64,000 nucleotides of DNA from a virus. The position numbers and the translations under genes are program-made. A model generated the notes under the pieces. The model was not told where the DNA came from and searched no databases. It saw only the letters and a list, made by a program, of their open reading frames with translations. Shown piece by piece: positions 13,604 through 64,000 of the stretch. The stretch's first letter is position 1. Every line of letters starts with the position of its first letter. The stretch is from positions 2,626-66,625 of the IMG/VR virus record IMGVR_UViG_3300045988_183936, one strand, 5' to 3'.

Positions 13604-13641
13604 AAACTTTTCACAGCAAAGCACTGATTTTTCCACTAAGA

Positions 13642-13872: not shown

Positions 13873-13918
13873 AAAAAACAGTGCAAATAGAGTAAACGCA
13901 ATTTGATACCTAAAACGA

Positions 13919-19486: not shown

Positions 19487-19690
19487 TTGACAAAATATCA
19501 AACTGTGGTAGTATAGAATTATAATTACGAAGCTATTTTTATAAAGGAGATTATCTCCGTTTTCAAGTCACCACAAAGAATCAAGACAGTTACTTCCCTT
19601 TTCTGGGAAGTGACTGTCTTTTTCTATATATAACATTTTTTGGATTCCCGTAAGTCCTTATTACAGGCTGGGAGAAAGGAGAAAAAGACC
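19487..19690 (+). promoter_or_regulatory. repeated promoter-leader-terminator cassette, copy 4
   Basis: Same promoter and leader. Hairpin agacagttacttcccttttctgggaagtgactgtct (19585-19619), fully compensated relative to copies 1-3, plus T-run. Conserved ggattcccgtaagtcctt...ggctgggagaaaggagaaa block. Confidence 0.75.
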
Positions 19691-21568: not shown

Positions 21569-21646
21569 GCTTATCCTGAAAGGAGAAGAGAGGCATGGAG
21601 CCTCTTTTCTTGCTTTCAGGACCGAAAGCAAGAAAGGAGAAAACAT

Positions 21647-22070
21647 CATGACTCACAACTATGAGAACGCCAAGTTCTTTAATCACGAGAGCTATAAGGC
21701 GCTTTGCGCTAAGGTCGGTGAGTGCATCAAAAACGGCGTCCAGTACGCTGATAAGATGCTCGACAACATCGAACGGCGCTGCGCCGGTGCTTTCCTCGAC
21801 TATGTGACGACCGTTGATATGAGCGAAACTCGCATCATCATCGCCCATAATCGTCTCGAAGGCGAAGACCTCATCGACACGCTGCAGACTATCGACGCGG
21901 GACGCCGGTCGGCACACGAGGCAGCTATGGCCGGATGCAGCATTCTCAACCGAATGGCTTTCGCCAACGGTATTGACCCCGTGTTCACTGGCAATCCTGA
22001 AGACCGTTTGCAGGTGGCAGATTTCTGCCTTGAATTCACTGTTGAAATTTTCAAGAACCGGCGCAAGTAA
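21647..22070 (+). CDS. hypothetical protein (141 aa) between the ATPase and VWA genes
   Basis: gaaaggagaaaacatcATG RBS. Confidence 0.5.
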
Positions 22071-22091
22071 ATAAGAAAGGAGAAATGACGC

Positions 22092-24611: not shown

Positions 24612-24633
24612 GCCCATTTGCTGCAGGAAGGAG

Positions 24634-24662
24634 TTGATTTTCTGCATATAAAGATGTATAAT
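24634..24662 (+). promoter_or_regulatory. sigma-A-type promoter
   Basis: TTGATT-17nt-TATAAT upstream of the fic gene. Confidence 0.5.
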
Positions 24663-24686
24663 AATGTGCAGAAAGGAGCTGGTGTT

Positions 24687-25768: not shown

Positions 25769-25978
25769 ATGACAGCCAAGCTGAAAAGTGATGCGTTGAG
25801 AGTTGTCAAGAGACTCCGTTGCTATGGCACGGACGCTGAAGACAACTTCGGCTGCGGCGATAAGCGGTGCAAGTACCGAGATGTGGACGGTGCCTGCAAC
25901 ATTAACAGCCTTGAAGCTGATGCTGCCGAAGTGATAGAGAAATTGTTGAAGGAGGTTGAAAAGTTTGAACATCGCTGA
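25769..25978 (+). CDS. small hypothetical protein (69 aa)
   Basis: aagaaaggagaaagcacaATG RBS. Confidence 0.45.
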   Translation: MTAKLKSDALRVVKRLRCYGTDAEDNFGCGDKRCKYRDVDGACNINSLEADAAEVIEKLLKEVEKFEHR

Positions 25979-31137: not shown

Positions 31138-31225
31138 TGGCGGAGAGAGTGGGATTCGAACCCACGGATGTTTTCGCATCGCCGGTTTTCAAGACCGGTG
31201 CCTTCAACCGCTCGGCCATCTCTCC
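31138..31225 (-). tRNA. tRNA-Ser (anticodon TGA)
   Basis: Reverse complement GGAGAGATGGCCGAGCGGTTGAAGGCACCGGTCTTGAAAACCGG...GGGTTCGAATCCCACTCTCTCCGCCA. 7-bp acceptor stem, long variable arm, anticodon loop cTTGAaa, encoded CCA. Confidence 0.85.
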
Positions 31226-45805: not shown

Positions 45806-45930
45806 AGTTCTGTTCTCTCTTTCTGGGGAGGTCTGCTCCCCTGCTTTTTTATTTTTGCAAAATCAGGGGCGCAGGCACAAGGTCTGCGCCCCTGAATTCA
45901 CTTTGAGTGATTGCTCAGGTGGGGATGTGC

Positions 45931-48900
45931 TTACTCGGCGAACTGCTCCTTCTTGCGACGGAACATGAACATCGCCGTAGCGCAGCAAGCGATGGCACTG
46001 AACGTACTCAGCATAGCCCACAGGCCGATGCCTTCATCGCCGGTCTGGACGCTATCGCGGAAGTACACAGTCTGAGCACCGTCCATCAGGTCGTTGTGGG
46101 TAGCAATGACATTACCCGCCTCAGCACGACCCTCATACAGAGTCTCGAACACCACGAGCGCATGGTCCTTCAGCTTGGATGCGTCGAACTTGAACGTAAC
46201 ATTCACAGCCCCGTTGGAGGACTTGGGCGTAAAGGTCGTGGTAGCCGTTACCAGATTCCCCTTATTGTCCTTGAGGGCAACACCGGAATCCTTATCCATC
46301 AGCGTACCAACCAGCACGTAGGTCTTGCCCACAGTCAGGCCGGTGTAGTTGACGGTGTCCACGATTTTCACGTTCTTGCCAGCCACGGAGTTCTTCTTGT
46401 CCTTGCCGTCGAAGGTGGCAGTCGTAGAGATGCTCGGACCGGAATAGGTCGGGATGCGCTTGATAGTCACGGTCTGGTCAACATCGTTGATGTCGGTGTG
46501 CGTAGCGACCGTAGTGCCATTGCGGGTCAGAGTCTCGAACACGACCAGCGTCTTGCCACCCAGAATGGAGGCATCGAACACGAAGCTCACATCCACAGTA
46601 CCGTCAGAGGACTTGGCCTCGAACTCGGTAGTGGCGGTGATTTCCTTGTTGTTGCGGCCCAGAACAGGCTCACCTGTCGCCTTGTCCATCAGCTTGCCGA
46701 TTACGGTGTACTTATTGCCGGCAATCAGGCCCTTATAGGACACGGTATCGACCAGCTCGACCTTGCTGTAGGCCCAGAATTCCTTCTTGCCATCAGCAGC
46801 GTTCTTAGCGGAGGTCTTGATTTCAGGGCTGTTGACAGTCACAGTCTGGTCAACATCGTCGATGTCGGCGTGAACTGCGATTTCAATGTCCTTGTACTGC
46901 AGGGACTCGAACACAACGATAGACTGGCCGCGCAGCAGAGATGCATCGAGCACGAAGAACACGTCAACGGTGCCGTTGGACGCCTCAGCGGTGAAAGTAA
47001 CGGAGGAGATAATTTCCTTTCCGTCCTTATCCTTCAGGGGCTCGTTGGTGGCCTTGTTCATCAGCTTACCGGAAACAGTGTACTTCTCCCCAGCAATCAG
47101 GCCCTTATAGGACACGGTATCCTTGATTTCAGCGCGAGCTTCGGGGTCAAGAGTCTTGCCGTTGGTGGCGTTGTTCACGGCCTTGGTGCCGATTTCGGGA
47201 ACGCCGATGGTAACGGTCTGGCCCTCATCGTTGATGTCCTCATGGCTCACAAACACGGGCTTATCGGAGTCACCGGGAACAATCTCGTTGCCCAGATACA
47301 CACGCTCGAATACCACCAGAGACTTGCCGGCCAGCTCAGTGGCATTGAAGACGAACTTCACGTCCACAGTGCCAGTAGCCTGCTCAGGAGTGAACACCTT
47401 GTAGGCGGTAATGGGCTCGCCCTTGGCATCGGTGACGGGCTTGCCGGTTGCCTTATCCATCAGAGTACCGATAGCAATGAACTCCTTACCCACAGGCATA
47501 TTCTCATAGGAGATGGTATCAACCAGAATCACATCGTCCAGAGGCATAAATTCCTTGCCGCCGGCGGAGTTCTTCGCGGTAGTACCAATCTTGGGATTCA
47601 GGACGGTCACGGTCTGGTCAACATCGTTGATGTCGGCATGAGTCGCAACGACCTTCTCACCACGCTTCAGGTCCTCGAAAGCAACGAGGGACTCGCCGCC
47701 CAGCAGAGAAGCATCGAAGGTGAACTCCAGCTCCACATAGCCGGTAAAGTCGGCCTCGGCCTTGAAGGTCTTGGAAGCAGTGATGCGGTTGCCCTGAGCA
47801 TCCAGCAGAGGCTCACCAGTGGACTTAACCACCAGATAGCCCTCGACCGTATAGGTCTTGTTGGGGATGACATCAGTGCATTCCACCTTATCAATGATAG
47901 TGACGGAGGTGGAAGGAATGATTTCCTTGTTGCCGTCCTTATCGGTGGCAGTGGTCTTGACCTTGGGGGTCACGGCCTCATCCTCAGCGACGATGCTCAC
48001 GGTCACAAGACCGGTCTCAGCGTCCAGAGAGATGGTGTCGGGAGTGACATCAAAGCGGATGGGAGTGTCCATCAGCTCGTAGCCCTTGGGGGCCTTGGTC
48101 TCGACCAGATGATAGCCCTCGCCATAAGGCAGGACCAGAGGAGTCACAAAGTAACCCTCGTCATTGGTCACGAATGTATCAATATACTTGACAGTGGGAT
48201 AAGTGACCTTCTGAGACACCTTGTTGCCATCGGGGTCATAAATCTGGAATTCAGCGCCGCCCCAAGGAATGACTTCGCCATCGAACTCATCGACCTTCAC
48301 AACGCGCAGATACGCAGTGATGGGGCCGTTGTTGACAGCCAAATCATGATGGTCACGGTCAACTTCGCCAACCAGAACGGTGAACTCAGGCGCGAGCCCC
48401 GCACCCTTATCCCCGGCCTTGGTCTGATGCACCACATAGGTGCCGTAGGGCAGCTCGATGGACTTGCCGCTGTAACCCAGCTCATTGGTGGTCAGCGTAC
48501 CACGCTCGTCCTCCTTGGCGTTCTCATAGGAGCCAGCAGACTGCAGCCAGTAGATGAACTCAGCGCCGCCCTCGAACTTAGCGGGGCCGGAAGTGCCATC
48601 GGAGATGAACTTGGTGATAGCGAACGTACCACGGTTGATGACCTCAACAGAGGTAATCAGAGGAGCAGAGTTGTGCTCAATGGTGTAGTTCTCAGGCTCA
48701 GAACCAACGGGATACACGGTCTCGTCAATCTGATAGCCGGTAGGAGCCTTGATTTCACGGATGGTGTAATCGTAGCCGCAGTTGTACTCGTCGGTCGTGA
48801 ACGTGCCGTCCTTACCGATGACGTACTCCTTCACCAGCTCGTCGCCCTTATACAGACCATACACAGCACCCTCGAAAACGCCATCGCCGCGAGGAATGTC

Positions 48901-51561
48901 AACGGTCTCGGAGTCGGTCTTCTTGACAGTGACCTTCCACTTCTTCAGTACGTTGCTCACAGCCGTATCGGTCGTCTTCTGGTACTCGACCACAAGACCT
49001 TCCTGAACAGCGGGGATGACGTACTTCACAGCGGTATCGACTTCCTCCAGCGTGTAGTTATTGCCAATCAGGACATCCTTGAAGATGGCAACGCCGTCAG
49101 CGTTGGTGGTAGCGGTCATATCCACAGCATCGCCGGAAATGGCAGTGCCGTACAGACGGAAGGTAATACCCTCGACCAGACCATCCTCGGAGGTCTTGGT
49201 CACGCGCAGGTCGCCGCGCTTGAGCTTGTTGTAGACTTCCACATCAGTGGTGTTGCCCAGCGTCACCTTGACGCCAGCCTTTACACCAGGAACAACGTAC
49301 TTCGCAGCGGTGTTGACTTCTTCAACGCTGTAATTGTTGCCAATCAGAACGTTATTGAAAGTAGCAATACCGTTTGCGTCAGTAACAGCGGTCATATCAA
49401 CGGTCTCACCGTTGATGGCCGTGCCGTACAGCCGGAACGTGATACCAGCGGTCTTGCCGTCCTCAGAGGTCTTCTTGACCTCAACGGCGCCGCGAGCCAG
49501 CTTGTTCTCGAACTGCAGGTTGGTCGTTTTGTTCAGAGAAATAGTCACGCCCTCCTGAATGGTGGGAACGACATATCTCTCAGCGGTGTTGATTTCCTGC
49601 ACGGTGTAGTTGTTACCGATAAGGATATCCTTAAACAGAATCACACCGTTTTCATCGGTGGTAGCCGTCTCGTTGACAGCCGCACCGGAGATGGAAGTAC
49701 CGGACAGGCGGAAAGTCATACCGGACACGAAGCCATCCTCGGAAGTCTTCGTGATTTTCAGATTACCGCGAGCCAGCTTATTCTCGAACTTGGCTTCAGT
49801 GGCGGCGTTGTACTCAACGACAACACCAGCCTGAACTTCAGGAACCACATACTTTGCAGCGGTATTGATTTCCTCAAGTTTGTAGTTCTTACCAATGGGA
49901 ACGTTGTTGAAAGTGGCAACGCCGTTCGCATCGGTAGTAGCGGTCATGTTCACGGACGTACCGCCGGCGGAAGTGCCGGACAGCCGGAAGGTATGACCGG
50001 CAACCTGACCATCCTCAGACATCTTTGTAATCTTGACAGTGCCCTTCTTCAGAACGTTGTTGAAGCTCACTGTCTTGACGTCTCCGATTGCGATGCTCAC
50101 GGTCTGAGACGTCGTCGGAATGTAGTTATCCGACATCTTCTCTGTCACGGTGTACGTACCGGGCTGCAGGTCAGCAATGGTGATTTTGCCGTTGGCAGCA
50201 GTCGTCACGGTTTTATTGAAACCGTTGGGACCGGTCACGGTGAAGCTCACGCCACTGACCTTGCCATCCTCAGAGGTCTTGGCAATGGTCAGGTCTCCGG
50301 TGGTCTTCGTGACCTTTGCTCTGACGTAAGCCGTAACAGGGTCAGGCCAACCATTCAGAGCAACGCAGTCCTGCTTGTCTCCGCCAGCGACAAGAACATA
50401 GGCGTTGACGCTATCGGGGTCAATCACATTGCCCTCAGAAGCATACGACGCAATACCGTTTAGCATACTCTTAGCAGCCTCGGCTGTAGCATTGATTGTC
50501 AAATTATAGCCGCTTTGAATGGTAGTAACTCCCGGCAGGCTGAACGTGAAGTCATCAAAGTTCGGCAGAACTCTGTTGGAGTCATATTCTGTAGCTGTCC
50601 ACTTTGTGCCATCCCACGACAGTTCGATATCTTTTCTTGAGTCAGTAGGCCTATATACGGCAAAACTCGGAATTTCAGCGTGCTGGTTAATCTTCTCCCA
50701 GATATAATCATGTGCTGCCTTGATAGGCTCTGCAACAGAGGCATCATAGGAATGACCGGGACCCACAAACAGGTCACTCAGGTCTCTGTAGCCACCAACG
50801 ATTTCCCAGATAACTTCCTGTGTGGCACACCACGCATAAGTGCCGTTGCCAGCATACCAGAGCAATGTCGAGTCGTCTACCCCACCGTAGCCATAGGCAA
50901 GAGCAAGACGGACATCATCGCTACCCCAAAAAGTATTTGCATCAACAGAAGTGCCACTACCGGGAGCTCCCTTGTGAGGTTCGATACAATAAGCGGGCTG
51001 GCCGTTGAAATATTTTACAACAGCGCTTGTATACGGCTCAAATTCTGACAGCCACGTACTGTTGTAACTCATATCGTCACCGGTCGTAATGGTTCCGGAG
51101 GAACGAGCGGGTGCTCTCATGGCACTGATAGCCCTGGGTGCGTTCTGCGCTGACCCGTAAAGGACGGAAACGCTTACAGGCGTATCCTCTCCAGCGTAGG
51201 GGTCCTGAAGCCCCTCCTCCGTCACGGACGTTTTGACAGACTCATCCTTACCAGCCCCGGATTTATCTTCATCCAGAGCAGCCTGCCCATTTTCGGAGGA
51301 GCTTTCTTTATCCTCAATGACGGGAGAATCGGACTTCTCACTGTCATCAGGATTCTTTGTGTCTTCTGTGGCGTTATAAACCAAATCGCCATCGCCAGAA
51401 TCAGTCTTCCCGACCTCCACAGGGTCAGAAACACTTTCAATAACGACCGAATTGCTGCCGCCATCCGCATCCGCTGCATACACGGACGTCGGGAGCAATC
51501 CAACCACCATCACCAGCGTCAGCAACATAGCTACTACGCCACGCAGCTTCTTGTGTTTCAT
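45931..51561 (-). CDS. sortase-anchored giant adhesin (1876 aa): signal peptide, thioester-like N-terminal domain, Cna-B-type repeats, VaFE-type repeats, C-terminal sorting signal
   Basis: Signal MKHKKLRGVVAMLLTLVMVVGLLPTSVYA. AYCIEP and TQEVIW (TQxxIW) motifs. More than 8 KTSEDG...TATTD.NG.A.F repeats. LVVFE(T/S)L...HxDINDxDQTV repeats. C-terminal VQTGDEG plus TM plus RRKKEQ. Confidence 0.8.
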   Translation of the reverse strand: MKHKKLRGVVAMLLTLVMVVGLLPTSVYAADADGGSNSVVIESVSDPVEVGKTDSGDGDLVYNATEDTKNPDDSEKSDSPVIEDKESSSENGQAALDEDKSGAGKDESVKTSVTEEGLQDPYAGEDTPVSVSVLYGSAQNAPRAISAMRAPARSSGTITTGDDMSYNSTWLSEFEPYTSAVVKYFNGQPAYCIEPHKGAPGSGTSVDANTFWGSDDVRLALAYGYGGVDDSTLLWYAGNGTYAWCATQEVIWEIVGGYRDLSDLFVGPGHSYDASVAEPIKAAHDYIWEKINQHAEIPSFAVYRPTDSRKDIELSWDGTKWTATEYDSNRVLPNFDDFTFSLPGVTTIQSGYNLTINATAEAAKSMLNGIASYASEGNVIDPDSVNAYVLVAGGDKQDCVALNGWPDPVTAYVRAKVTKTTGDLTIAKTSEDGKVSGVSFTVTGPNGFNKTVTTAANGKITIADLQPGTYTVTEKMSDNYIPTTSQTVSIAIGDVKTVSFNNVLKKGTVKITKMSEDGQVAGHTFRLSGTSAGGTSVNMTATTDANGVATFNNVPIGKNYKLEEINTAAKYVVPEVQAGVVVEYNAATEAKFENKLARGNLKITKTSEDGFVSGMTFRLSGTSISGAAVNETATTDENGVILFKDILIGNNYTVQEINTAERYVVPTIQEGVTISLNKTTNLQFENKLARGAVEVKKTSEDGKTAGITFRLYGTAINGETVDMTAVTDANGIATFNNVLIGNNYSVEEVNTAAKYVVPGVKAGVKVTLGNTTDVEVYNKLKRGDLRVTKTSEDGLVEGITFRLYGTAISGDAVDMTATTNADGVAIFKDVLIGNNYTLEEVDTAVKYVIPAVQEGLVVEYQKTTDTAVSNVLKKWKVTVKKTDSETVDIPRGDGVFEGAVYGLYKGDELVKEYVIGKDGTFTTDEYNCGYDYTIREIKAPTGYQIDETVYPVGSEPENYTIEHNSAPLITSVEVINRGTFAITKFISDGTSGPAKFEGGAEFIYWLQSAGSYENAKEDERGTLTTNELGYSGKSIELPYGTYVVHQTKAGDKGAGLAPEFTVLVGEVDRDHHDLAVNNGPITAYLRVVKVDEFDGEVIPWGGAEFQIYDPDGNKVSQKVTYPTVKYIDTFVTNDEGYFVTPLVLPYGEGYHLVETKAPKGYELMDTPIRFDVTPDTISLDAETGLVTVSIVAEDEAVTPKVKTTATDKDGNKEIIPSTSVTIIDKVECTDVIPNKTYTVEGYLVVKSTGEPLLDAQGNRITASKTFKAEADFTGYVELEFTFDASLLGGESLVAFEDLKRGEKVVATHADINDVDQTVTVLNPKIGTTAKNSAGGKEFMPLDDVILVDTISYENMPVGKEFIAIGTLMDKATGKPVTDAKGEPITAYKVFTPEQATGTVDVKFVFNATELAGKSLVVFERVYLGNEIVPGDSDKPVFVSHEDINDEGQTVTIGVPEIGTKAVNNATNGKTLDPEARAEIKDTVSYKGLIAGEKYTVSGKLMNKATNEPLKDKDGKEIISSVTFTAEASNGTVDVFFVLDASLLRGQSIVVFESLQYKDIEIAVHADIDDVDQTVTVNSPEIKTSAKNAADGKKEFWAYSKVELVDTVSYKGLIAGNKYTVIGKLMDKATGEPVLGRNNKEITATTEFEAKSSDGTVDVSFVFDASILGGKTLVVFETLTRNGTTVATHTDINDVDQTVTIKRIPTYSGPSISTTATFDGKDKKNSVAGKNVKIVDTVNYTGLTVGKTYVLVGTLMDKDSGVALKDNKGNLVTATTTFTPKSSNGAVNVTFKFDASKLKDHALVVFETLYEGRAEAGNVIATHNDLMDGAQTVYFRDSVQTGDEGIGLWAMLSTFSAIACCATAMFMFRRKKEQFAE

Positions 51562-51830
51562 GGTTTTTGAAATCTCCTTTCAAAAATTTTTGAAGATTAA
51601 CCGGCCTTCCTACCTTTACATGAATATGATATTTTGCCAAGTTCGAGATGCAAAAAAGGCAGGAGACCGACGCTCTCCATAATCCCATAGTAGCATATTC
51701 GATTATATTGTCAACACATCTGAAGCTGCAAAATTCCAGCCGAACAATAAGCATCAGCATCTTTTTCTTGCAGGAGGCGCAAAAAAAAGCAGCGGCTATG
51801 CCGCTGCTTTTCTGACTTAATTGAAACTTG

Positions 51831-53013
51831 TTACGCTGCGTAGTAAACGAAAATCTCGTGGTATCCAGCAGAGGCATTCCAACGAACCACACAGTTGACG
51901 GCGGAAGCGCAACCCTCAGGGACTTCATCAACAGGACTCCAACGCCCAAGGCGGATGGCAGTTTCCTTAACATAATCCACCTTCTGCTTAATTGCAGACT
52001 CAACCCATTCCTGATTCCAACAAGACTCAGGACAATCGCGCTCCAAGTAAATGGGAGGGAAATAGCTTCTGCTGCCATCCCAAATCTCAAAACCTACGCT
52101 TTCCGCGTAAGCATTTCCAGCAGCCATAGCTGCGGAACAGTCGATATCAGCCTTGGTGGGCTTGGTGGGCTCGGTGGGAGTAGCAGAACCACCACCAGTG
52201 GAACCGCTGTTGTCGTCAGAGGGCTTGCTGGGAGTAGTGCTGCCACCGTTGTTGCCGGTGTTACCGCCGGAGGGCTGGTCAGGCGTGGTAGTCTGCTTGT
52301 TGTTCTGGTAGTAGGCCCAAGCCTCGTCAGCGGTACGACCGCCGGCTGCCTTCTTAGAACCCGCGCCCCACTGACCGTCAGCGGTCACGCCATACCAACG
52401 CTGCAGCTCCTTCACCTGAGCAGTAGTCAGGCTGCCGTTGTCATAGCTGGGAGTAGAGGGCTTCTGAGAGGGGGTCTCCGTCTTGGTGTCATTCTTGGTA
52501 TCGCTCTTGTTGTCAGACTTGTTATCCGTCTTCGTGTCGGTCTTGGTGTCCGTCTTAGAGGTGTCCTGCTTATTGTCAGCGGGCTTCTGCTCACCCTTCT
52601 TGGACTCGTCAACCTTAGTCTCGGTCTTCTTATCGTCGGCCTTGACCTCATCCTTGGCATCGGTCTTATCCTCGGTCTTCTGAGCATCATCGACCTTGGG
52701 TTCCTCCGCCTTCTCATCTGTCACGTTTCCGGACTGCTCGACATAAGCGGTGATATCCTCCGCCTTGACGACCACATTGCCATCCGCATCCAGCACATTG
52801 CCGTCCGCATCCAGCGTGAAGTCGGTCACTGCCTTGCCGTCCTTGTCCACCAGAACCTTTTCGCCGGTCTCAGTCGTCTGCACGTAGCATCCGATTTCCT
52901 CGCCGGTCTTGGTTTCCTCGCTGGCCTTGTTGCCACAGGCCACCAAACTCATGGTCATCACCAGAGCCAGCAGCAGGGCCATAAAATTCTTCATCTTTTT
53001 CATTGTCATAGTT
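51831..53013 (-). CDS. lipoprotein with K/D/T-rich low-complexity repeats (about 394 aa)
   Basis: Start at MKKMKNF (53013 or 53019) after gaaaggaac. Lipobox LVACG. TKTDTKTDTKTDNKSDNKSD repeats. Cys-rich C-terminal domain. Confidence 0.55.
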
Positions 53014-53113
53014 CCTTTCTTAAAATTCAAAATTTGCTCAGGGAATGTATTCAAATAAATGACCAGTGCGCGAGGATTTGTTCTGTGGAAACTTGACATT
53101 ATTTTTGATGTGC

Positions 53114-53146
53114 TGACTATAACACGAATATAAAAAAATGTCAAGT
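53114..53146 (-). promoter_or_regulatory. promoter for the lipoprotein gene (same module as 33562-33594)
   Basis: Minus strand: gacTTGACAtttttttatattcgtgTTATAGTc. Confidence 0.5.
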
Positions 53147-53350
53147 CTCGATTTTGTAAAAATATGAATCTGAGGTGCGAAAAGCACAAGGTCTTGTGTT
53201 CCAAAAAATCTGAAACCCTTGATGTAGCAACAGCTTCAGCAGTCCACTGCCCTCCAAATTTCTCCTGAAAAATTTTTGCAAAAAAATTGAGCCGGAGGTT
53301 TTCTCCGGCCCAATTTTGGGTTTCTATGAGGTCTGCTGACCCCATTTAAG

Positions 53351-56300: not shown

Positions 56301-59300
56301 TCCTTTGCCTTGAAGGTCTTCTCAACTGTAATCGCATCACCATTTGCATCGACCACAGGCTTACCGGTTGCCTTATCCATCAGTGTTCCGGAAACCTTGT
56401 ATGTATGACCGTCAATCAGGCCAGTGAAGGAAACAGTATCCAGAATCGTGACCTTCTTTTCAGGTTCAAGCATTTTGCTGCCATCAGCCTTATTGGAAGC
56501 TGTGGTCTTAACAGTGGGTTTCGCTACCGTTACAGTCTGGCCTTCATCGTCAAGGTCTTTGTGGGATGCAACCGCAACAGACTGCTGCTCGTAGAACAGT
56601 TCCTCGAAAACTACGATGTCCTTACCCTGCATACCCGTTGCATCGAAAGTGAACTCCATGTCGATGCTGCCATATGCCTTCTTTGCGGTGAAGGATTTCT
56701 CAAATACAACAGGCTTGCCGTTCAGTAGAACAGGCTCACCAGAGGCCTGATAAACCAGTGTTCCACGCAGCCTATAGTCGTGTTTTGCTGACAGGTGTTC
56801 ATACTTGACAGTATCACGAATTACGACATTTCCGGCTGCATCAATGAATTTTCCGCCGCCCTCGCCATTCTCGGCGGTCGTATCGGACAGTTCGGGCATA
56901 TAGAACGTTGCAGACTGGTCAACATCGTTGATGTCTTCATGCTTGGCGATGATATTTCCATCATAGGAAACAGTCTCAAACGCCACAACCGTCTTCCCAA
57001 ACAGTGCTGAGGAGTCAAACGTAAAGTAGACATCAACAGAACCATCGGAAGATGTGGGCACAAATATCGTCTTGCCCGTGATTTCCCCGTTTCCTCCGAC
57101 CAGCACTCGGCCAGTAGCCTTATCCATCAGGCGGCCTTCAGCAACGTAAGTATGACCGGGAATGAGGTTGTGGTAGCTCACGGTATCGACAAGAACAGTA
57201 GCCAACGAAGAGACGAAGAACTGGTTCTTATCAGGGCTTGCGTTCATCGTCGTACCAATGCTGGGCTCGGTGACAATCACGGTCTGCGCTTCATCACGAA
57301 GGTCTGTATGCTTCGCACAAGGCTCGACGTCGTTCTCATTGAAGAAGAGTTCCTCAAATACCACAACACTCTTGCCTGCGAGCTGAGAGGCATTCAAAGT
57401 GAATGTCATATCCACGGAGCCAAAAGTCCGCTTCGGTGTAAACTTGATAGATACAACCGTGTTGGGCAGTTCTTCACCAGTTTCACCATTCATCAGTCGT
57501 CCAACCAGTGTATACTCGTGGTCGGGTGTCACATGGGAATAGGTAACGGTATCAGTGATGGAAACCTTCTTGGCTGCATCGACCAAATTGTTGCCGCCAT
57601 CAGTGTTCTCAGCGCTCGTTGAGATGCTTGGCGTGTTGATTTTCACGGTCTGGTTATCGTCCTCAAAGTCCTTATGCCCGGCGATAATCGTACCGTTGAA
57701 AGCCAATTCCTCAAACACGACCAAGGACTGACCATAGAGCTGCGAAGCATCGAAGGTAAACTCGACATTGACTTTTCCGTTCACACTGCGGGCTGTAAAG
57801 GTCGTGCTGCCTGTTACGGGAGTTCCATTAGAATTCAGCACAGGAGCGCCAGTCTGCTTATTCACCAGCGTGCCGGACACGGTATATTCGTGTCCCTTAC
57901 TCAGACCGGAATACGTCACGGAATCAATCAGCTTAACAAAACTCTTGGGGTCAAAGAACTTGGAATTGCCCTCTGCGTTCTTTGCGCTGGTCTTGATTTC
58001 CGGAGTATTAAAGGTCAAAGACTGCTTCAGGTCGTTAATGTCAGTGTGTTTGCCCGCAGGAATCTCCTCGTCTTTATTGAAGTACAGATACTCAAACACC
58101 ACGAGTGTCTTCCCTGCCATATTGCTGGCATCAAAGGTAAACTCGACATTCACCGTACCAGCAACACGCTCAGGTGTGAACGTGGTCTTGCCGGTAATCT
58201 CGTTACCCTTCGCATCGAGCAGAGCCTTGCCTGTATCCTTATCCATCAGCTTACCGATGATGGTGTACTCATGGTCGGGAGTCAGATGGCGGTAATACAC
58301 GGTATCCACGATATGAGTCCCCAAAGCGGGGTCAATCAGGTTGGTATTGCCATCATCGTTCAGGGCCTTAGTGCTCAACTCAGGAGCGAAGAAAATGGCT
58401 TCCTGCTTCTCGTCCGTGAGGTCCTTGTGCTCGGCGATAATGGTGTTGTGATAGTACAGAGACTCAAAGGCGATAACGCTCTGGCCGTACAGGATAGATG
58501 CATTCAGCGTGAAAGTCACGTCAATACTGCCATCCTTACTGGTCGGAACGAACTCGGTCTCGCCAGCCACCAATTTACCGTTGCCGTCACGGATAACATC
58601 GCCGGTTTCCTTAGAAACGAGGTTGCCCATCACTTTATATGTGTGACCGGGCACAAGGTCGGTATAAGTCACGGTATCCGTGATAGTGATTTCGTTCAGG
58701 GGCTCAAAGTAGTTGTTCAGAGAGATGCTTTCGTTGATGTTCGTATGAATCGAAGGAGTATTCACAACGACAGTCTGGCCTTCATCATTGATGTCCTTAT
58801 GGACAGCGCAAGGAGTCGTATCAGAAGCGCGGAAATACAGTTCCTCGTAGACGACCAGAGAATCACCGTCAAGCCCAGAAGCATCAAAGGTAAAGACCAT
58901 CTCGGTGTTGCCCTTGGAGGCGGTAGGCGTGAACGTGTTCGTCACAGTCACAGTGCGTCCGCCAGACACCACAGGCTCTCCGGTGAGCTTATTCATCACC
59001 GTACCAGTGATGGTATACTCCTGACCGATGGTAAGGTGCTCGTAGGCAATCGTATCCTTGATGACAACGTTCTTGGCAGGGTCAATGAACTTGCCAGTAC
59101 CCTCACCATCAATAGCAGTAGTGCCAATTTCGGGGTTATATACCTTTACGGTCTGGTTGGCATCTGCATCATCTTCATGTACCGTCAGTACCGTACCACG
59201 GTAGGACAGCTTCTCGAAGATAACCAGCGTATGCCCATACAACTCAGAAGCATCAAAGATGAACTCAACATCTACTGTACCGGTCTTTGCCGTAGGCGTA

Positions 59301-62300
59301 AACGTCGTTGTGCCAGTAATATCATTGCCGGCAGTATCTTTCAGAAACTCGCCCGTAGTTTTATCAAAGACCTTGCCAGTCAGCAGATAGGTATGTCCCT
59401 CAACGACCTTCTCATAAGAGACGGTATCCTTGATTTTTACGCTGTACTGCGCCTCAAGGAACTTCGTTCCGTCGGCAGCATTCACTGCGTTGGTGGTAAT
59501 CTCAGGAGCCTCGACCGTCACGGTCTGGTCAGCATCGTCAATGTCCTCATGCGTCGCAACAGGCACTTCTGCGCTGATAGCAACATGGTAGAGTTTCTCG
59601 AAAGCAACGAGCTGGACGCCGGCAATCTCAGTGGCGTCGAAGGTAAAGACCACATCCACCGTACCTGAAGTGGTGGACGGCGTAAAGGTTGTCTCGCCAA
59701 CAATGAAATTACCATTGTCATCCTTTGCGGGCTGCTGTGTGTCCTTATCCATCATCTGCCCACTCAGTACATATTTATGGCCGGGTGTCAGGTGCTTATA
59801 GGATACGGTATCAACGATAGAAACGCCAACAGAGGGGTCAACTACCTTCACGTTGCCATCGGGGTTATTTGCAGAGGTCTTGATTTCAGGGGCGTAGAAA
59901 GCTACGGTCTGGTCGGCATCCGCAATGTCCTTATGGCTTGCCACCTCGACACCATCACGATGCAGCGTATCGAAAACAACAACAGCATCGCCGGCAATCA
60001 GAGAAGCATCAAAGGTAAAGGTCAGCTCCGTGGAACCATTGAAGTTGTCACCTGCAACAAATGTGTTTGTTGCAGTGATGCGCTTACCGCTGCCATCCAG
60101 CAAAGGTTCACCTGTAGACTTCAGCACAAGATATCCATTCACGGTATAAGTCTTGCCGGGGATTACATCCGTGCAGGATACTGTATCCTCGATAGTCACA
60201 GATGTCAGGGGCTCCATAGTCTTCTCGCCAGCAGCTCCCTTTGCCATGGTCTTGATTTCCGGTGTCACAGGACTATCCTTTGCCGTAACCACGATGACCT
60301 TCTTATCACCTTCCATCGTAGTGTTCTCTGCGTCAACATTGAACTCGATGGGAGTGGAATCCAGCTTGTAGCCCTTGGGCGCCGTTACCTCGACCAGCGT
60401 ATAGCCGCGACCAAACGGCAGCTCCTCAGGAGTAATCAGCTTACCTTCGGCATCGGTCTTAAATGTAGAGACAGTTGAAAGGCCATTCTTGAGAGAAACC
60501 ACATCGCCCTCAGGGTCGTAGATTTGGAACTCCGCACCACTGTAAGGAATCAGGGTGTTATCCATCGCATCGAGCTTGACAATGCGAACAGAAGCATAGT
60601 AAGGACGGTCGTTCAAAACATAGAAGTATGTCTTGCCGTTCTCGGAAATAGTGACCTCAAAACCATGGAGCATATCAGCGCTCTCAAAGTCCTTCGTCTG
60701 GTCAATGATGTATGTACCGTAAGGCAGAGCCTTGGTGGTAGCATACCCGTCCTCTCCAACAACGATATGGTCTCGGTCGGTGGTCTTCGCGTTGGCGTAA
60801 CTGCCAGCAGCCTTCAGGTAGACGTCGAACTCGGCTCCCACTTCGGGAGTCACCTTTCCGGTCGGGAGAGCTTCCTCAAGGCCGGTAGCTCCCACATCGG
60901 AGTGCTTGAAAATCTTGATGTAGCCCTTGATGACTCGCTCGGTAACGCCCAAGTCGGGAGCCGCATTGATTTCGATAACGTAGTTCTTCGCCTCGGCACC
61001 GACGTGATACACACTGTCGTCCAGCAGATAGCCAACGGAAGGGACGATTTCCTTGATGGTCCAATTATCACCACAGATGTAAACGTCCGTAGTGAACTTG
61101 CCATTGGCATCAGTGGTGTACTGCTTCACCAGCTCATCACCGTCATACAAACCGTAAACGGCACCTTTCAGCGTGGCATTACCCTGTGCTGTAGTCGTCT
61201 CATTATCACGCTTTGTGACGGTCACAGACCACTTCTTCAGCACGTTATGGATAGATGCGGTCGTGGTCTTATCCAACTTGACGTCAATACCGTCCTTGAC
61301 GGCGGGAATGACGTAGCGGGCGGCAGTATCAACTTCTTCCAGAGAGTAATTATAACCGACCAACACGTTCTCGAAGGTCGCCACGCCAGCAGCGTTGGTC
61401 ACGGCGGTCATATCAACGGCCTGTCCCTGTGCGGAAGTTCCTGTCAGGCGGAATTTGATGCCCTCAACGATACCATCTTCAGAGGTTTTAGTGACACTCA
61501 CTGTACCACGGGCCAGCTTATTATACACGTTGGCATTTGTGGTTTTATTCAGAGTGACCACGATGCCGGAAACGACATCGGGCACAATGTACTTCTCAGC
61601 AGTGCCGACCTCCTGAACGGTGTAATTTTCACCAATCAGGACGTTAGAGAAGGTCGCAATACCCTTGGCGTTTGTAGTGGCGGTCATGTCCACTGTGTCA
61701 CCGTTACCAGCCGTGCCGGTCAAGCGGAACTTGATGCCAGACACCAGACCATCTTCAGCAGTCTTGGTGACTGTGACAGTACCACGAGCCAGCTTGTTGT
61801 AGACGGCGGCATCAGTAGTCTTACCCACAGCAATGGTGATACCATTCTGTGCTGCAGGAACCACATAGCGGGCAGCCGTGCCGACCTCGGTCAGCACATA
61901 GCTGTTGCCAACCAGCACATCCTTAAACTCGGCAATACCCTGTGCGTTGGTAGTCGCATCCAGAGACACTTTCGCACCGGAGGTTGATGTGCCTTCCAGA
62001 TGGAACTTCACACCGGAAACCAAACCATCCTCGGAGGTCTTGGTGACACGGAGATTACCACGAGCAAGGTCGTTACGGAACGACAGCTTGGTCGTATCGT
62101 TGACCTTTACAGTCACGCCAGCCTGAACCGCAGGAACCACATAGCGAGCCGGAGTGTTGGCTTCCTGCACCGTATACTTCGAACCGATAGGCACGTTGGA
62201 GAATGTCACTACACCCTTGGCATCTGTCTTAGCGGTCATGTTGACGGTCGTACCAGCATCGGAAGTGCCGGTCAGTGTGAATGTGAGGTTACTCACAACA

Positions 62301-64000
62301 CCATCTTCGGAGGTCTTCGTTACCTGAACAGCTCCGACCTTGAGCTTATTCTGGATAGACACCGAAGTCTTATTGTTGATGGTTACGGTAACATTAACAG
62401 GGTTGACCACCTGATAGTATGCCGGTGTATTGACCTCGGACACAGTATAGCTTCCGATAAGAACATTGGAGAAGGTTGCAATACCTGAGGCGGTGGTTGT
62501 CGCGTACAGGTCAACGGCAGTACCATCAACGGAAGTACCCTGCAGGCGGAAACGCACGTTGGCGATTTTACCATCTTCGGAAGCCTTCGTTACCTGCACA
62601 GAGCCGCGTGCCAGCTTGTTGCTGACAGTTACCTGTGTGGTGTTATTATACTTTACAGTGACGTTCTGTGCGGACACAGGAGCATACTGTTTACCAGTAT
62701 TTACCTCGGTCAGCGTATATGTACCGATAAGCACATTTGAGAACGTAGCTACACCGCTGGCATTGGTGGTAGCTGTCAGGTTTACAGCCTGACCGGAAGT
62801 GGATGTGCCCTTCAGGTTAAACTGAATGCCACTCACCTTTCCGTCCTCGGAGTTCTTGGTGACAGTCACATTGCCGCGAGCCAATTTATTTTCGAATGTT
62901 TTGGTTGCAGACGTATTAGGCGTCGAAAGCGTAAACGTCTGGCTGGCAGGGGCTACATATCTTCTGGGCGTATTTGCCTCGGTAAGAACATAGTTGGAAC
63001 CCAAGGGGACATTGGAGAACGTAGCCTTGCCGTTCGCATCTGTGGTCGCAGACAGATTTACAGCATCTCCCGCGTAAGACGTCCCCGTCAGTGTAAAAGT
63101 GAACCCTTGCAGAACTCCATCTTCCGATGTCTTCGTTACCTGCACGGTACACCGAGACACTTTGTTCTGGAAGGAGACACTCGCCGTGCCTCCAATCGTA
63201 ACTGTCGCAGTCTGAACCCGATTCACAGCATAGTATCCTAACGGCGAAGATTCTGTAATCGTGTAAGTTCCGGGCTGCAGGTCTGTAATGCTGATTTTGC
63301 CGGATGCATTTGTCTTAAAGAGTCGGTTATACCCATTCGGCCCGGTTACAGTAAAACTGACGTTGGAAATGTTTTTCCCATTTTCAGACGTCTTTGTGAT
63401 GTTAAGATTACCGGTTGTTTGCGTCACCTTCGCCCGCACATAACAAGTAACGGGGTCAGGCCAACCGTTCAGCGCAACGCAGTCCTGCTTGCTGCCACCT
63501 GCGACGAGAACGTAAGCATTGACGCTGTCGGGGTCAATCACGTTACCATAAGACACATATGAAGCATATCCATTCAGCAAACTCTTTGCCGCTTCTGATG
63601 TTGCTGTTATTGTCAGATTGTATCCAACCTTACTCGCCGACAAACCAGCCAACCCAAATGTGAAATTGTCAAAATTCGGCAGAACCCTGTTTGAATCATA
63701 CTTAGTTGCTGTCCACACTGAACCATTCCACGCAAGTTCAATATCTTTTCTAAAATCTGTGGGACGGTAAACAGCAAAACTCGGAATCTCTGCCTGCTGA
63801 TTTATTTTCTCCCAAATATAATCGTGCGCCGCCTTGATAGGTTCAGCAACCTCGGGGTCATAAGCATGACCGGGACCCACAAACAGGTCGCTCAGGTCAC
63901 TGTAACCGCCAACGATTTCCCAGATAACCTCCTGTGTGGCACACCAAGCATAAGTACCGTTACCAGCATACCAGAGCAACGTCGAGTCATCTGCGCCACC
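53351..64000 (-). CDS. sortase-anchored giant adhesin, N-terminus truncated by the window end (at least 3542 aa): thioester-like domain, Cna-B and VaFE-type repeats, SPKTG sorting signal
   Basis: Same TQEVIW block as adhesin 1. More than 12 Cna-B-like repeats. More than 20 (V/L)V(A/V)FE repeats. C-terminal SPKTGDSG plus TM plus KRKKNK. Confidence 0.8.
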   Translation of the reverse strand, partial: GGADDSTLLWYAGNGTYAWCATQEVIWEIVGGYSDLSDLFVGPGHAYDPEVAEPIKAAHDYIWEKINQQAEIPSFAVYRPTDFRKDIELAWNGSVWTATKYDSNRVLPNFDNFTFGLAGLSASKVGYNLTITATSEAAKSLLNGYASYVSYGNVIDPDSVNAYVLVAGGSKQDCVALNGWPDPVTCYVRAKVTQTTGNLNITKTSENGKNISNVSFTVTGPNGYNRLFKTNASGKISITDLQPGTYTITESSPLGYYAVNRVQTATVTIGGTASVSFQNKVSRCTVQVTKTSEDGVLQGFTFTLTGTSYAGDAVNLSATTDANGKATFSNVPLGSNYVLTEANTPRRYVAPASQTFTLSTPNTSATKTFENKLARGNVTVTKNSEDGKVSGIQFNLKGTSTSGQAVNLTATTNASGVATFSNVLIGTYTLTEVNTGKQYAPVSAQNVTVKYNNTTQVTVSNKLARGSVQVTKASEDGKIANVRFRLQGTSVDGTAVDLYATTTASGIATFSNVLIGSYTVSEVNTPAYYQVVNPVNVTVTINNKTSVSIQNKLKVGAVQVTKTSEDGVVSNLTFTLTGTSDAGTTVNMTAKTDAKGVVTFSNVPIGSKYTVQEANTPARYVVPAVQAGVTVKVNDTTKLSFRNDLARGNLRVTKTSEDGLVSGVKFHLEGTSTSGAKVSLDATTNAQGIAEFKDVLVGNSYVLTEVGTAARYVVPAAQNGITIAVGKTTDAAVYNKLARGTVTVTKTAEDGLVSGIKFRLTGTAGNGDTVDMTATTNAKGIATFSNVLIGENYTVQEVGTAEKYIVPDVVSGIVVTLNKTTNANVYNKLARGTVSVTKTSEDGIVEGIKFRLTGTSAQGQAVDMTAVTNAAGVATFENVLVGYNYSLEEVDTAARYVIPAVKDGIDVKLDKTTTASIHNVLKKWSVTVTKRDNETTTAQGNATLKGAVYGLYDGDELVKQYTTDANGKFTTDVYICGDNWTIKEIVPSVGYLLDDSVYHVGAEAKNYVIEINAAPDLGVTERVIKGYIKIFKHSDVGATGLEEALPTGKVTPEVGAEFDVYLKAAGSYANAKTTDRDHIVVGEDGYATTKALPYGTYIIDQTKDFESADMLHGFEVTISENGKTYFYVLNDRPYYASVRIVKLDAMDNTLIPYSGAEFQIYDPEGDVVSLKNGLSTVSTFKTDAEGKLITPEELPFGRGYTLVEVTAPKGYKLDSTPIEFNVDAENTTMEGDKKVIVVTAKDSPVTPEIKTMAKGAAGEKTMEPLTSVTIEDTVSCTDVIPGKTYTVNGYLVLKSTGEPLLDGSGKRITATNTFVAGDNFNGSTELTFTFDASLIAGDAVVVFDTLHRDGVEVASHKDIADADQTVAFYAPEIKTSANNPDGNVKVVDPSVGVSIVDTVSYKHLTPGHKYVLSGQMMDKDTQQPAKDDNGNFIVGETTFTPSTTSGTVDVVFTFDATEIAGVQLVAFEKLYHVAISAEVPVATHEDIDDADQTVTVEAPEITTNAVNAADGTKFLEAQYSVKIKDTVSYEKVVEGHTYLLTGKVFDKTTGEFLKDTAGNDITGTTTFTPTAKTGTVDVEFIFDASELYGHTLVIFEKLSYRGTVLTVHEDDADANQTVKVYNPEIGTTAIDGEGTGKFIDPAKNVVIKDTIAYEHLTIGQEYTITGTVMNKLTGEPVVSGGRTVTVTNTFTPTASKGNTEMVFTFDASGLDGDSLVVYEELYFRASDTTPCAVHKDINDEGQTVVVNTPSIHTNINESISLNNYFEPLNEITITDTVTYTDLVPGHTYKVMGNLVSKETGDVIRDGNGKLVAGETEFVPTSKDGSIDVTFTLNASILYGQSVIAFESLYYHNTIIAEHKDLTDEKQEAIFFAPELSTKALNDDGNTNLIDPALGTHIVDTVYYRHLTPDHEYTIIGKLMDKDTGKALLDAKGNEITGKTTFTPERVAGTVNVEFTFDASNMAGKTLVVFEYLYFNKDEEIPAGKHTDINDLKQSLTFNTPEIKTSAKNAEGNSKFFDPKSFVKLIDSVTYSGLSKGHEYTVSGTLVNKQTGAPVLNSNGTPVTGSTTFTARSVNGKVNVEFTFDASQLYGQSLVVFEELAFNGTIIAGHKDFEDDNQTVKINTPSISTSAENTDGGNNLVDAAKKVSITDTVTYSHVTPDHEYTLVGRLMNGETGEELPNTVVSIKFTPKRTFGSVDMTFTLNASQLAGKSVVVFEELFFNENDVEPCAKHTDLRDEAQTVIVTEPSIGTTMNASPDKNQFFVSSLATVLVDTVSYHNLIPGHTYVAEGRLMDKATGRVLVGGNGEITGKTIFVPTSSDGSVDVYFTFDSSALFGKTVVAFETVSYDGNIIAKHEDINDVDQSATFYMPELSDTTAENGEGGGKFIDAAGNVVIRDTVKYEHLSAKHDYRLRGTLVYQASGEPVLLNGKPVVFEKSFTAKKAYGSIDMEFTFDATGMQGKDIVVFEELFYEQQSVAVASHKDLDDEGQTVTVAKPTVKTTASNKADGSKMLEPEKKVTILDTVSFTGLIDGHTYKVSGTLMDKATGKPVVDANGDAITVEKTFKAKDASGSIDVEFTFAATELFGKDLVVFEKIFYNDTEIASHENINDKGQTVQVHNPNITGTTAVGTLDGGKFIDPAANVKITDTVTYEHLSTGHEYTLRGTLMNKETGEPIKNGGTEVVFEQVFTPAATSGSVDMQFTFNASFLKGKDVVVFEEIYFNVDDTEPVAVHKDIDDGSQTVSVTNPEVQTVAVNKEDNGKVFEPDTTVTLKDTVFYNNLIVGHKYTVTGTLMDEETGKAIKDIDGNIVTASVEFVPEAACGTVDVEFTFVATELYGKTIVAFEKLLFNGTVIASHEDINDEEQTTTVHNPEIMRTIAVSAVDEGKLIDASETSIINDTVVYRHLSTGHTYTLRSSLVDKTTGEPVLNNGVPVVAEMQFAPESTAGSVVAAIEFDASSVKGRDIVVFEELFFNADDKNPVAAHKDIEDADQTVTVVKSSIKTSAENAADSTKVFEPTADVVLKDTVTYEGLIVGHTYKVVGTLMDKATGKPVENTGGKTITAETTFTPEAESGSVVVEFKFDARTFFGRTLVVFENLYYGNSVVASHKDINDEDQSVDVKAPIIVGTTATNKADGGKLFDPAEKVVLVDTVKYDHLSAAHKYTLAGKLMDKASGEAVNDKDGNPVTASTSFTPDALSGSVDVVFEFDGKALAGKDVVVFEYLFYNDGDETALTTHEDLEDAAQTVTFTNPSVKTSASNASTGKKTFSPYEKAELVDTVTYTGLIPGHEYTLVGTLMEKVKTGDKFEGKAVMDKDNKPLTATATFTPEKADGTTTVSFIFSARSVAGKTLVVYEELFYDSMSIAAHADITDEEQTVTVDRIHYRSGPTMSTTATFANGAKSSGYASRLVIVDTVSYSGLTVGQTYTLVGKLMDAQTGVALRDTNDREVTSTLTFTPKTSDGSVDMKFSFNAGNIKGAKIVVFEEMYVGKDVAGTPYLSHTDINDAGQTVTVTVSPKTGDSGIGIYIAIGAIALGAVVVVVVVSTIKRKKNK

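Follow-up and report, generated by a model that had tools for sequence, protein, structure and literature searches.

To our knowledge, covalent attachment to a target is known among bacterial adhesins only for the thioester-, isopeptide- and ester-bond (TIE) class, whose self-cross-linking domains are also raw material for protein-ligation tools. Here we describe two genes of this class, gene 1 and gene 2, in a 64,000-nucleotide (nt) stretch of IMG/VR record IMGVR_UViG_3300045988_183936 (hereafter, the window). A described system of similar plan is Cpe0147 of C. perfringens (PDB 4NI6 and 4MKM), which, in the account of Kwon et al. 2014 as cited in PMC12679949, combines an N-terminal thioester domain (TED) with an ester-bonded Ig-like shaft and a wall anchor; its ester-bond residues are T450, H572, D577 and Q580, with the buried acids D480 and E547 (PMC12679949). 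In a second group, formed by BaTIE (6FWV), SaTIE (6FX6) and EfmTIE86 (6FWY), the TED is followed by Lys-Asn isopeptide domains (triad K297/E343/N373 in BaTIE) and then a sortase signal (PMC6194298). The thioester pairs of these proteins are Cys71 and Gln266, Cys296 and Gln467, and Cys88 and Gln292, respectively: the bond-forming Gln lies on strand Q, 171–204 residues past the Cys, a helper motif TQxxΦW sits next to the bond on helix α2, and the hallmark of class II TEDs is a β-sandwich insertion of approximately 75 residues ahead of the distal Gln (PMC6194298). A class II TED on a Cna-type stalk is also encoded by a plasmid, pLS20 of B. subtilis, as the p34 product TIEpLS20 (PMC8092201).

Open reading frame (ORF) calls and translations place three genes on the minus strand between 45931 and 64000: gene 1, a lipoprotein gene and gene 2. 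With a probability of about 0.85, genes 1 and 2 encode two paralogous, Sec-exported, cell-wall-anchored TIE adhesins; the element that carries them is plasmid-like and belongs to a Clostridia bacterium of the human gut, probably a member of the Oscillospirales. Gene 1 is complete, whereas gene 2 is cut by the window end, with 3549 codons (10,650 nt including the stop codon) inside the window. An exact-sequence look-up of gene 1 found its protein on five contigs of 50–200 kb and led to an 87.8-kb ENA contig on which the full gene 2 product has 3788 amino acids (aa), so that approximately 239 N-terminal residues of gene 2 lie outside the window. The missing part comprises the signal peptide, the linker and the TED Cys; the window enters the protein at GGADDSTLLWY, 33 residues past the Cys position. 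A preliminary description of the window, made from its letters alone, had reported two giant adhesins with thioester modules and CnaB and VaFE repeats, the second gene being at least 10.6 kb, and both statements agree with the ORFs and domain families that we found. Both genes share one domain order (signal peptide, acidic linker, class II TED, CnaB/SpaA domains, divergent SpaA domains, TQ/VaFE domains, sorting signal) and differ in unit counts, with 5 CnaB, approximately 3 divergent SpaA and 5 TQ units in gene 1 and 8, approximately 3 and 18 in gene 2. Their features are as follows.

45931..51561, minus strand: gene 1, complete TIE adhesin gene, 1876 aa (ORF, Pfam, NCBIfam).
51475..51561, minus strand: gene 1, predicted Sec signal peptide, aa 1-29, MKHKKLRGVVAMLLTLVMVVGLLPTSVYA, with a basic n-region, a hydrophobic core and a VYA-A site, as judged by eye from the translation.
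50293..51111, minus strand: gene 1, class II TED, aa ~151-423 (PF08341, PF20610, profile and fold matches).
48934..50292, minus strand: gene 1, five tandem 92-aa CnaB/SpaA-type isopeptide domains, aa 424-876 (hidden Markov model (HMM) built in this analysis; triads).
47989..48933, minus strand: gene 1, ~3 divergent SpaA/prealbumin-like domains, aa 877-1191 (best Pfam SpaA stretch 1086-1178).
46066..47988, minus strand: gene 1, five T-Q ester-bond (VaFE) domains, aa 1192-1832 (PF18202, NF033903).
45934..46065, minus strand: gene 1, sorting signal with SVQTGD, hydrophobic segment and RRKK tail (translation).
53351..beyond 64000, minus strand: gene 2, cut by the window end.
63407..64000, minus strand: gene 2, C-terminal part of the class II TED (alignment to gene 1).
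61226..63406, minus strand: gene 2, eight tandem CnaB/SpaA-type isopeptide domains (the same HMM; triads).
60284..61225, minus strand: gene 2, ~3 divergent SpaA-like domains.
53480..60283, minus strand: gene 2, eighteen T-Q ester-bond (VaFE) domains (PF18202, NF033903, unit alignment).
53354..53479, minus strand: gene 2, sorting signal with SPKTGD, hydrophobic segment and KRKKNK tail.

The acidic low-complexity linker of gene 1 extends to aa ~150 and leads into the TED, where Pfam TED (PF08341) scored 33.7 bits against a cutoff of 22 and TED_2 (PF20610) also matched. Cys192, within AYCIEP (codon 50986-50988), fits the Φ-C-Φ-[EQD]-P context of the TED bond Cys, and ATQEVIWE, an instance of the TQxxΦW helper motif, was found in both genes (TQEVIW at 50806-50823 in gene 1 and at 63920-63937 in gene 2). 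A TED profile built from 23 homologs, with chain positions counted in the printed alignments, matched the TEDs of SaTIE (6FX6, E=5.7e-15) and BaTIE (6FWV, E=1.1e-13). In these alignments the profile Cys column coincides with SaTIE Cys296 and BaTIE Cys71, a conserved distal Gln column with SaTIE Gln467 and BaTIE Gln266, and the Lys of the first CnaB domain with BaTIE Lys297. Because the Cys and distal Gln columns align with the known pairs, the predicted thioester of gene 1 is Cys192–Gln397 (GGDKQDC, Gln codon 50371-50373), with a spacing of 205 aa as against 171–204 aa in solved class II TEDs; the predicted bond-forming Gln of gene 2 (GGSKQDC, codon 63485-63487) lies inside the window. Residues C53, T108, Q109, W113 and Q258 (query numbering) are conserved in at least 90% of the 23 homologs. 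A Foldseek search with an AlphaFold2 (AF2) model of the TED returned only two matches at E<=0.001, both class II TEDs (6FX6 and 6FWY), and the model places β-strands between the helices and the Gln strand, albeit at low model confidence, which around the Cys is too weak for a statement on Cys–Gln proximity. The gene 1 TED is thus of class II, and shares with BaTIE, SaTIE and EfmTIE86 the Cys, the TQxxΦW motif, the β-sandwich insert and the distal Gln (PMC6194298), although the TEDs of genes 1 and 2 are only ~20% identical to theirs.

The preliminary description had placed AYCIEP and TQEVIW in both proteins and had read them as a Cys/Gln pair. TQEVIW does occur in both, whereas AYCIEP is present in the window only for gene 1; for gene 2 it falls outside and is present in the ortholog L083 (3788 aa), which supplies the N-terminus from MKISRF through a signal peptide to AYCIEP and which is 97.9% identical in amino acids to the gene 2 part in the window, ungapped over 3549 aa. 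The pairing itself does not hold, as the Gln of TQEVIW corresponds to the helper residue and the predicted bond partner is Gln397.

The stalks were resolved by family searches and by alignment of their units. Pfam SpaA (PF17802) matched gene 1 with 244 bits in 7 stretches and gene 2 with 350 bits in 11, Pfam TQ (PF18202, cutoff 23.8) with 486 bits in 5 and 1589 bits in 18, and NCBIfam VaFE_rpt (NF033903, cutoff 24) with 574 bits in 5 and 1927 bits in 18. The SpaA and TQ stretches amount to ~41 Ig-like domains, in line with the 'dozens' of repeats first noticed, and approximately 42 such domains are present in both genes together, 36 of them canonical units with intact catalytic residues (13 CnaB and 23 TQ). 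Our HMM recognized the CnaB units of gene 1 with i-E-values of 6e-29 to 3e-44, and the Lys/Glu/Asn triad is invariant in all 13 tandem units (K-to-E ~52 and K-to-N ~82 columns), the set that this count covers. Among the ~6 divergent SpaA domains, gene 1 aa 1073-1176 matched PDB 9VO5 (SpaA-like) in a PDB sequence search. In the TQ units, Thr, the Asp of DTV, His, Asp and Gln are each present in 23 of 23, and the Glu of VFE in 22, the remaining unit having Asp. Their H-x4-D-x2-Q spacing equals that of Cpe0147 H572/D577/Q580, and alignment with 4MKM together with the spacing points to the Thr of I-x-T-x-A as the probable nucleophile. For the TQ domains, the PDB sequence search matched 4MKM and 4NI6, both from Cpe0147, as well as further adhesin domains with ester bonds. 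One paralog pair thus holds all three bond types, as predicted, together with two sorting-signal variants.

One short motif in the gene 1 stalk is recorded here as a side observation: an RGD tripeptide (DIPRGDG) at ~48890-48900 on the minus strand, at aa ~890, within the first of the divergent SpaA-like domains. As gene 2 has QGNATLKG at this site and relatives have PQGDATLAG, the tripeptide may have arisen by chance.

Compared with Cpe0147, the two proteins share the Thr/His-x4-Asp-x2-Gln set and the two buried acids (PMC12679949) and differ in several respects: the TED of Cpe0147 is of class I (CpTIE, 5A0G) and those of genes 1 and 2 of class II; the ester units here measure ~124–133 aa against ~150; CnaB/SpaA domains stand between the TED and the ester domains; and there are two plasmid-borne paralogs with 5 and 18 ester units and with SVQTG and SPKTG signals. 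BaTIE, SaTIE and EfmTIE86 resemble them in having isopeptide domains and a sortase signal behind the TED, but are ~560–1000 aa long, with ~3 stalk domains, no ester domains and LPxTG signals. In sheer size the two genes recall the 7651-residue adhesin of Mobiluncus mulieris (PMC10619420), which is likewise giant, with dozens of Ig-like domains and with ester, isopeptide and thioester cross-links; unlike the genes described here, that adhesin is chromosomal, comes from the Actinomycetota and has 51 repeats and disulfides; the likeness seen here is one of shared families.

At their C-termini, gene 1 ends in ...RDSVQTGDEGIGLW, a transmembrane-type hydrophobic segment and RRKKEQFAE, and gene 2 in ...VTVSPKTGDSGIGIY, a similar segment and KRKKNK; the gene 1 tail RDSVQTGDEGIGLW is kept in three orthologs. 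The gene 2 signal fits the (S/P)PxTG type, and its order of SPKTG, D, hydrophobic segment and basic residues resembles that of the C. difficile SrtB substrates CD0386, CD3392 and CD2831 (PMC4155245, PMC4371152, PMC5569036), whereas SVQTGD of gene 1 has Val in place of Pro and resembles the NVQTG of C. difficile CbpA (PMC5569036). The C. difficile proteins have other passenger domains, and C. difficile is not the host of the genes described here. That species has one class-B sortase, a housekeeping enzyme unlinked to its substrates, and it cleaves SPKTG and not NVQTG in vitro (PMC4155245, PMC4371152). The class-B/SPKTG-type sortase that had been proposed for both proteins is therefore a reasonable candidate for gene 2, whereas VQTGD is not an established class-B motif and, because NVQTG is not cleaved by the C. 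difficile enzyme in vitro, the analogy is uncertain for gene 1. The expectation that the sortase is not encoded in the window was borne out: no ORF of the 64-kb window has the TLxTC signature, and no sortase family matched any of the ~50 window ORFs scanned. The 10 kb upstream of gene 2, where orthologous contigs carry parA-parB, likewise contain no sortase. An ORF with 'TIYSC' 5' of the gene 2 orthologs was rejected as a sortase since no family matched it, and on inspection two ORFs 3' of gene 1, of 238 aa and 518 aa, showed no sortase-like features.

Taken together, these data suggest the following mechanism. Each protein would present one N-terminal class II TED at its tip, with an internal Cys-Gln thioester (Cys192–Gln397 in gene 1), and a rigid stalk of Ig-like domains, ~13 in gene 1 and ~29 in gene 2, would hold the tip off the cell at lengths of roughly 55 nm and 125 nm. 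Each stalk domain would lock itself autocatalytically, the CnaB/SpaA units through Lys-Asn isopeptide bonds and the TQ/VaFE units through Thr-Gln ester bonds formed by a serine-protease-like Thr/His/Asp set. Cleavage at the SPKTGD of gene 2 would fall to a Clostridia 'housekeeping' sortase of class B, the gene for which would lie elsewhere, most probably in the chromosome of the host, whereas the processing enzyme of the conserved variant SVQTGD in gene 1 is uncertain. From the complete conservation of the defining residues we infer, with high confidence, a thioester hook, an isopeptide- and ester-locked stalk and sortase anchoring; the formation of the bonds, the target, the sortase and the biological role (adhesion to host, mucus or particles as opposed to cell-cell contact) are put forward here as predictions.

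Several points weigh against this reading. The AF2 model of the TED is weak, with a mean confidence score (pLDDT) of 62.7, values below 50 around the Cys and TM-scores of 0.39–0.45, and bond formation is predicted, bond chemistry being something that sequence cannot show. The TED Cys of gene 2 lies outside the window and is seen only in the 97.9%-identical ortholog. The SVQTG of gene 1 lacks the Pro of (S/P)PxTG and is closer to NVQTG, and no sortase was found in the 64-kb window or, in orthologous contigs, in the 10 kb 5' of gene 2. Finally, the nearest TED among 185,579 species genomes is only 35–37% identical.

The TED relatives found elsewhere bear on how the two proteins might be displayed. 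A single-protein scan of genome contigs found no close relative, and a protein search for TED homologs returned no match longer than 700 aa and no full-length proteins; an alignment-based scan of species-representative genomes yielded 456 distant TED relatives. Most full-length ones among them end in xP[KQN]TGD, and a class-B-like sortase (TIGR03064, 133–146 bits, just under the cutoff of 153.75) is encoded ~3 kb downstream of several adhesins with xPxTGD tails. The nearest homologs (35–37% identity, including one on Vescimonas pMM35_02) are 470–740 aa long and end in LPFTGG, and genes for a major pilin and two class C sortases come after them; because of this ending and the two class C sortases that follow, we regard that group as pilus tip adhesins. 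By extension, genes 1 and 2 might encode tip subunits of sortase-polymerized pili. We rejected this reading, which we consider highly improbable, because the genes have no LPxTG signal and no pilin or class C sortase nearby: their motifs are SPKTG and SVQTG, neither a pilin gene nor a class C sortase is present in the window or within the 10 kb 5' of gene 2, and a length of 1876 or 3788 aa with a long stalk of its own is what one typically finds in adhesins anchored to the wall as monomers, Cpe0147 and BaTIE among them.

The relation between the two genes was examined in DNA and protein alignments and among homologous contigs. In the preliminary description the N-terminal modules were nearly identical at the DNA level, comparing 50700-51050 with 63650-63979, which was taken to suggest recent duplication or gene conversion. 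These two segments do not align (29% identity, as for random sequences), since the coordinates are ~170 nt off; the true paralog register is an offset of 13,114 nt, in which 63650-63979 matches 50536-50865 at 81.5% nt and 89% aa identity. Near-identity is not seen in this register, as nucleotide identity reaches 90% only in the first 120 nt and is 77% over the shared 594-nt TED part and ~55–65% in the stalk. At the protein level, the TEDs are ~85% identical between the paralogs and the signal peptides and linkers 20–67%. The use of identical codons at conserved residues is ~0.3–0.5 over most of the module, which indicates old paralogs with at most a short conversion patch; it rises to ~0.72 at gene 1 aa 219-278 (~180 nt), where a short conversion tract is possible. 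Gene conversion may therefore survive as a short tract, whereas a recent duplication does not fit the codon use.

The same description held that highly similar internal repeats make the locus prone to length variation. The 23 TQ units are 30–60% identical in amino acids (mean 42%), the best pair being the orthologous first unit of both genes, and DNA copies of the repeats are 60–82% identical; in the 18-kb region, Tandem Repeats Finder found no tandem DNA array and the longest exact DNA repeat is 37 nt. High similarity of the repeats is thus not what we observed. A scan of metagenome contigs returned 26 loci. Gene 2 has 18 TQ and 8 CnaB units and 3788–3789 aa in all 9 copies, which come from independent assemblies of different projects, and gene 1 has 5 TQ and 5 CnaB units in all 4 copies from independent assemblies, its length ranging from 1876 to 1916 aa through differences that fall in the linker. 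Repeat numbers are thus the same in every copy, down to ~83% aa identity, and variation in repeat number among strains appears largely refuted.

Two readings of the locus depend on these numbers. The first, that the giant ORFs are an assembly artefact of collapsed or mis-joined repeats, draws on the low coverage of the source contig (3.6x) and on the classical misassembly of repeat-rich genes. It was rejected because the same architecture and repeat counts recur in many independent assemblies, 9 for gene 2 and 4 for gene 1; in addition, gene 2 aligns without gaps with L083 over 3549 aa and the repeats, with exact matches of at most 37 nt, are too diverged to collapse. Collapse, which the preliminary description had named as a possible refutation, is thereby excluded, and we give the artefact reading next to no chance. 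The second reading is recent duplication or gene conversion of the N-terminal modules, together with recombination-prone arrays that vary in length among strains. In its favour are the ~180-nt tract with codon use of 0.72 and nucleotide identity of 84–90%, and the finding that the TED is the most variable part between close alleles (87–88% identity as against 95–100% elsewhere). The protein P0001 (604 aa, from contigs of at most 3969 nt) adds a mosaic, which is 97–100% identical to gene 1 over aa 1-240, departs from both paralogs over aa 240-400 and equals gene 2 in every residue of aa 400-604; coming from contigs below 4 kb, it may be either a natural recombinant of the paralogs or an assembly chimera. 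The 77% nucleotide identity of the shared TED part, the 20–67% of the signal peptide and linker and, for length variation, the diverged repeats and the constant repeat numbers in 13 gene copies speak against this reading, and we consider it improbable as a whole. Exchange of TEDs at the adhesive tip is nevertheless plausible, given the P0001 mosaic and the variability of the TED between close alleles.

The surroundings of the two genes are plasmid-like. In the window we found TopoIII, a zeta-toxin-like gene, TnpB, Fic, an AAA/VWA pair, flotillin, a nuclease, one tRNA-Ser and many ORFs without a family; a prophage context was rejected, as a PHROGs search gave no phage signal. The orthologous contigs are 110–134 kb long and come from human-gut metagenomes, and in the 9–10 kb 5' of gene 2 they carry genes for ParA, ParB and one more secreted protein and none for a sortase. 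ParB scored 68.6 bits with TIGR00180 (cutoff 58.45), and parA-parB stands directly upstream of gene 2, an order ParA-ParB-gene 2 that we read in the orthologous plasmid contigs (L085-L092). A related order, in which an unknown protein of ~240 aa stands between ParA-ParB and a class II TED adhesin, is seen again in distantly related Clostridia elements (L024, L051, L068 and L081, at ~7000-9750). The element measures at least 134 kb, of which the 64-kb window and the 10 kb 5' of gene 2 (~74 kb) were examined for conjugation genes, and in this part no type IV secretion system (T4SS) or relaxase family (relaxase, VirB4, VirD4, TrbL) was found.

This setting raises an alternative for the role, though not for the nature, of the two adhesins, namely that they serve the mobile element and that the TED binds recipient cells in mating-pair formation. 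It is a live alternative because a class II TED adhesin, TIEpLS20, is required for efficient conjugation of pLS20, its Cys68Ser variant being inactive (PMC8092201). The neighbours of 9 distant relatives include ParA, ParB, TraG P-loop, TrbL, a T4SS coupling protein, ArdA, methylases and an integrase, and TED relatives occur on Vescimonas, Subdoligranulum and Monoglobus plasmids, the closest of which, on Vescimonas pMM35_02, adjoins VirD4-like and PrgI genes. The ParA-ParB synteny shared by the distant elements and by gene 2, and the TopoIII gene 4.4 kb from gene 1, point the same way. So does a set of 1453-aa relatives in many Lachnospiraceae genera, described below. Set against this are the lack of relaxase, VirB4, VirD4 and TrbL families in the part examined, whereas TIEpLS20 is encoded inside a defined conjugation operon; the three stalk domains of TIEpLS20, which is sortase-independent and has neither a sorting signal nor ester domains; stalks of 13 and 29 domains in two paralogs, which are not known for conjugation adhesins; and the origin of the context evidence in homologs only ~30% identical in the TED. 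On balance we judge a conjugation role unlikely, if more probable than the other alternatives.

A further reading joins several of these strands. In it, the adhesin pair would be a backbone module of a widespread gut Clostridia plasmid and would offer near-identical covalent hooks at two heights, capturing recipient or partner cells (in conjugation or co-aggregation) and not host tissue; mosaic exchange of TEDs would retune specificity, and SVQTG would be anchored by a route other than SPKTG/SrtB. We regard this combination as rather speculative and its truth as quite unlikely.

The 1453-aa TED adhesin just mentioned was observed with an identical C-terminal tail (…DTPKTGDDTNMKLWYVLAGLSAVGI…) in loci L067-L082 (match ~9640-13996). 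The carrier genomes are assigned to many genera (Muricomes, Lachnospira, Blautia, Faecalicatena, Lactonifactor), and even a Selenomonadaceae bin is among them, which indicates a promiscuous mobile element.

Both adhesins are real yet ordinary members of the well-described TIE class, their nearest known counterparts being Cpe0147, BaTIE/SaTIE and the Mobiluncus giant adhesin. Under NCBI rules, each would receive an automatic label as a surface protein, either VaFE repeat-containing or SpaA-related. The locus leaves current understanding unchallenged. It adds a clean, apparently prevalent human-gut TIE example on a plasmid-like element, is of use for annotation, supplies divergent TQ and CnaB units, and lends itself to examining whether TED adhesins on plasmids of gut Clostridia act in colonization or in DNA transfer. 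Mildly interesting are the parAB-adjacent plasmid site, the great difference in stalk length between the two paralogs, the conservation of the SVQTG variant and the mosaic alleles of the TED.

The remaining features next to the adhesin genes, those other than the lipoprotein gene resting on consensus scans only, are as follows.

51831..53003, minus strand: predicted lipoprotein gene, 390 aa, lipobox LVAC, between both adhesin genes.
51687..51714, minus strand: promoter-like site 5' of gene 1, TTGACA-16-TACTAT with TG.
53116-53144: similar promoter-like site 5' of the lipoprotein gene.
45863..45895, strand not assigned: terminator-like 14-bp GC-rich hairpin just 3' of the gene 1 stop codon.
51788-51805, minus strand: terminator-like site 3' of the lipoprotein gene.

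The 390-aa predicted lipoprotein has a long Lys/Asp/Thr-rich low-complexity region and a weak PG_binding_1 match, and its gene appears to own separate promoter-like and terminator-like sites.

Farther from the adhesins, the window carries the following features.

39193-41490, minus strand: TopoIII-like type IA topoisomerase.
31138-31225, minus strand: a single tRNA-Ser, anticodon TGA, in surroundings that are otherwise plasmid-like.
4795-5538, plus strand: zeta-toxin-like ORF (PF06414, E=2.9e-7), for which no epsilon antitoxin was identified.
10242-11360, plus strand: TnpB/IS605 OrfB-type gene (OrfB_IS605, Cas12f1-like TNB and HTH_OrfB domains).
19640-24320, plus strand: MoxR/VWA-type pair, a 642-aa AAA_5-like ATPase and a 742-aa VWA/CobT-like protein.
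24618-25733: Fic, after the AAA/VWA pair.
25956-27329: HD-domain protein, after Fic.

In a megablast of 28000-52000 (24 kb) against plasmids, only the tRNA-Ser matched, at 82–92% identity to Pusillibacter, Sphingomonas and E. coli records. The TopoIII relatives are named Clostridia or Oscillospiraceae, and a 94%-identical cluster representative (P0094) groups 1151 member sequences, from which we conclude that the element is common in public sequencing runs. The AAA/VWA pair, Fic and the HD-domain protein may together form a defence or stress module.

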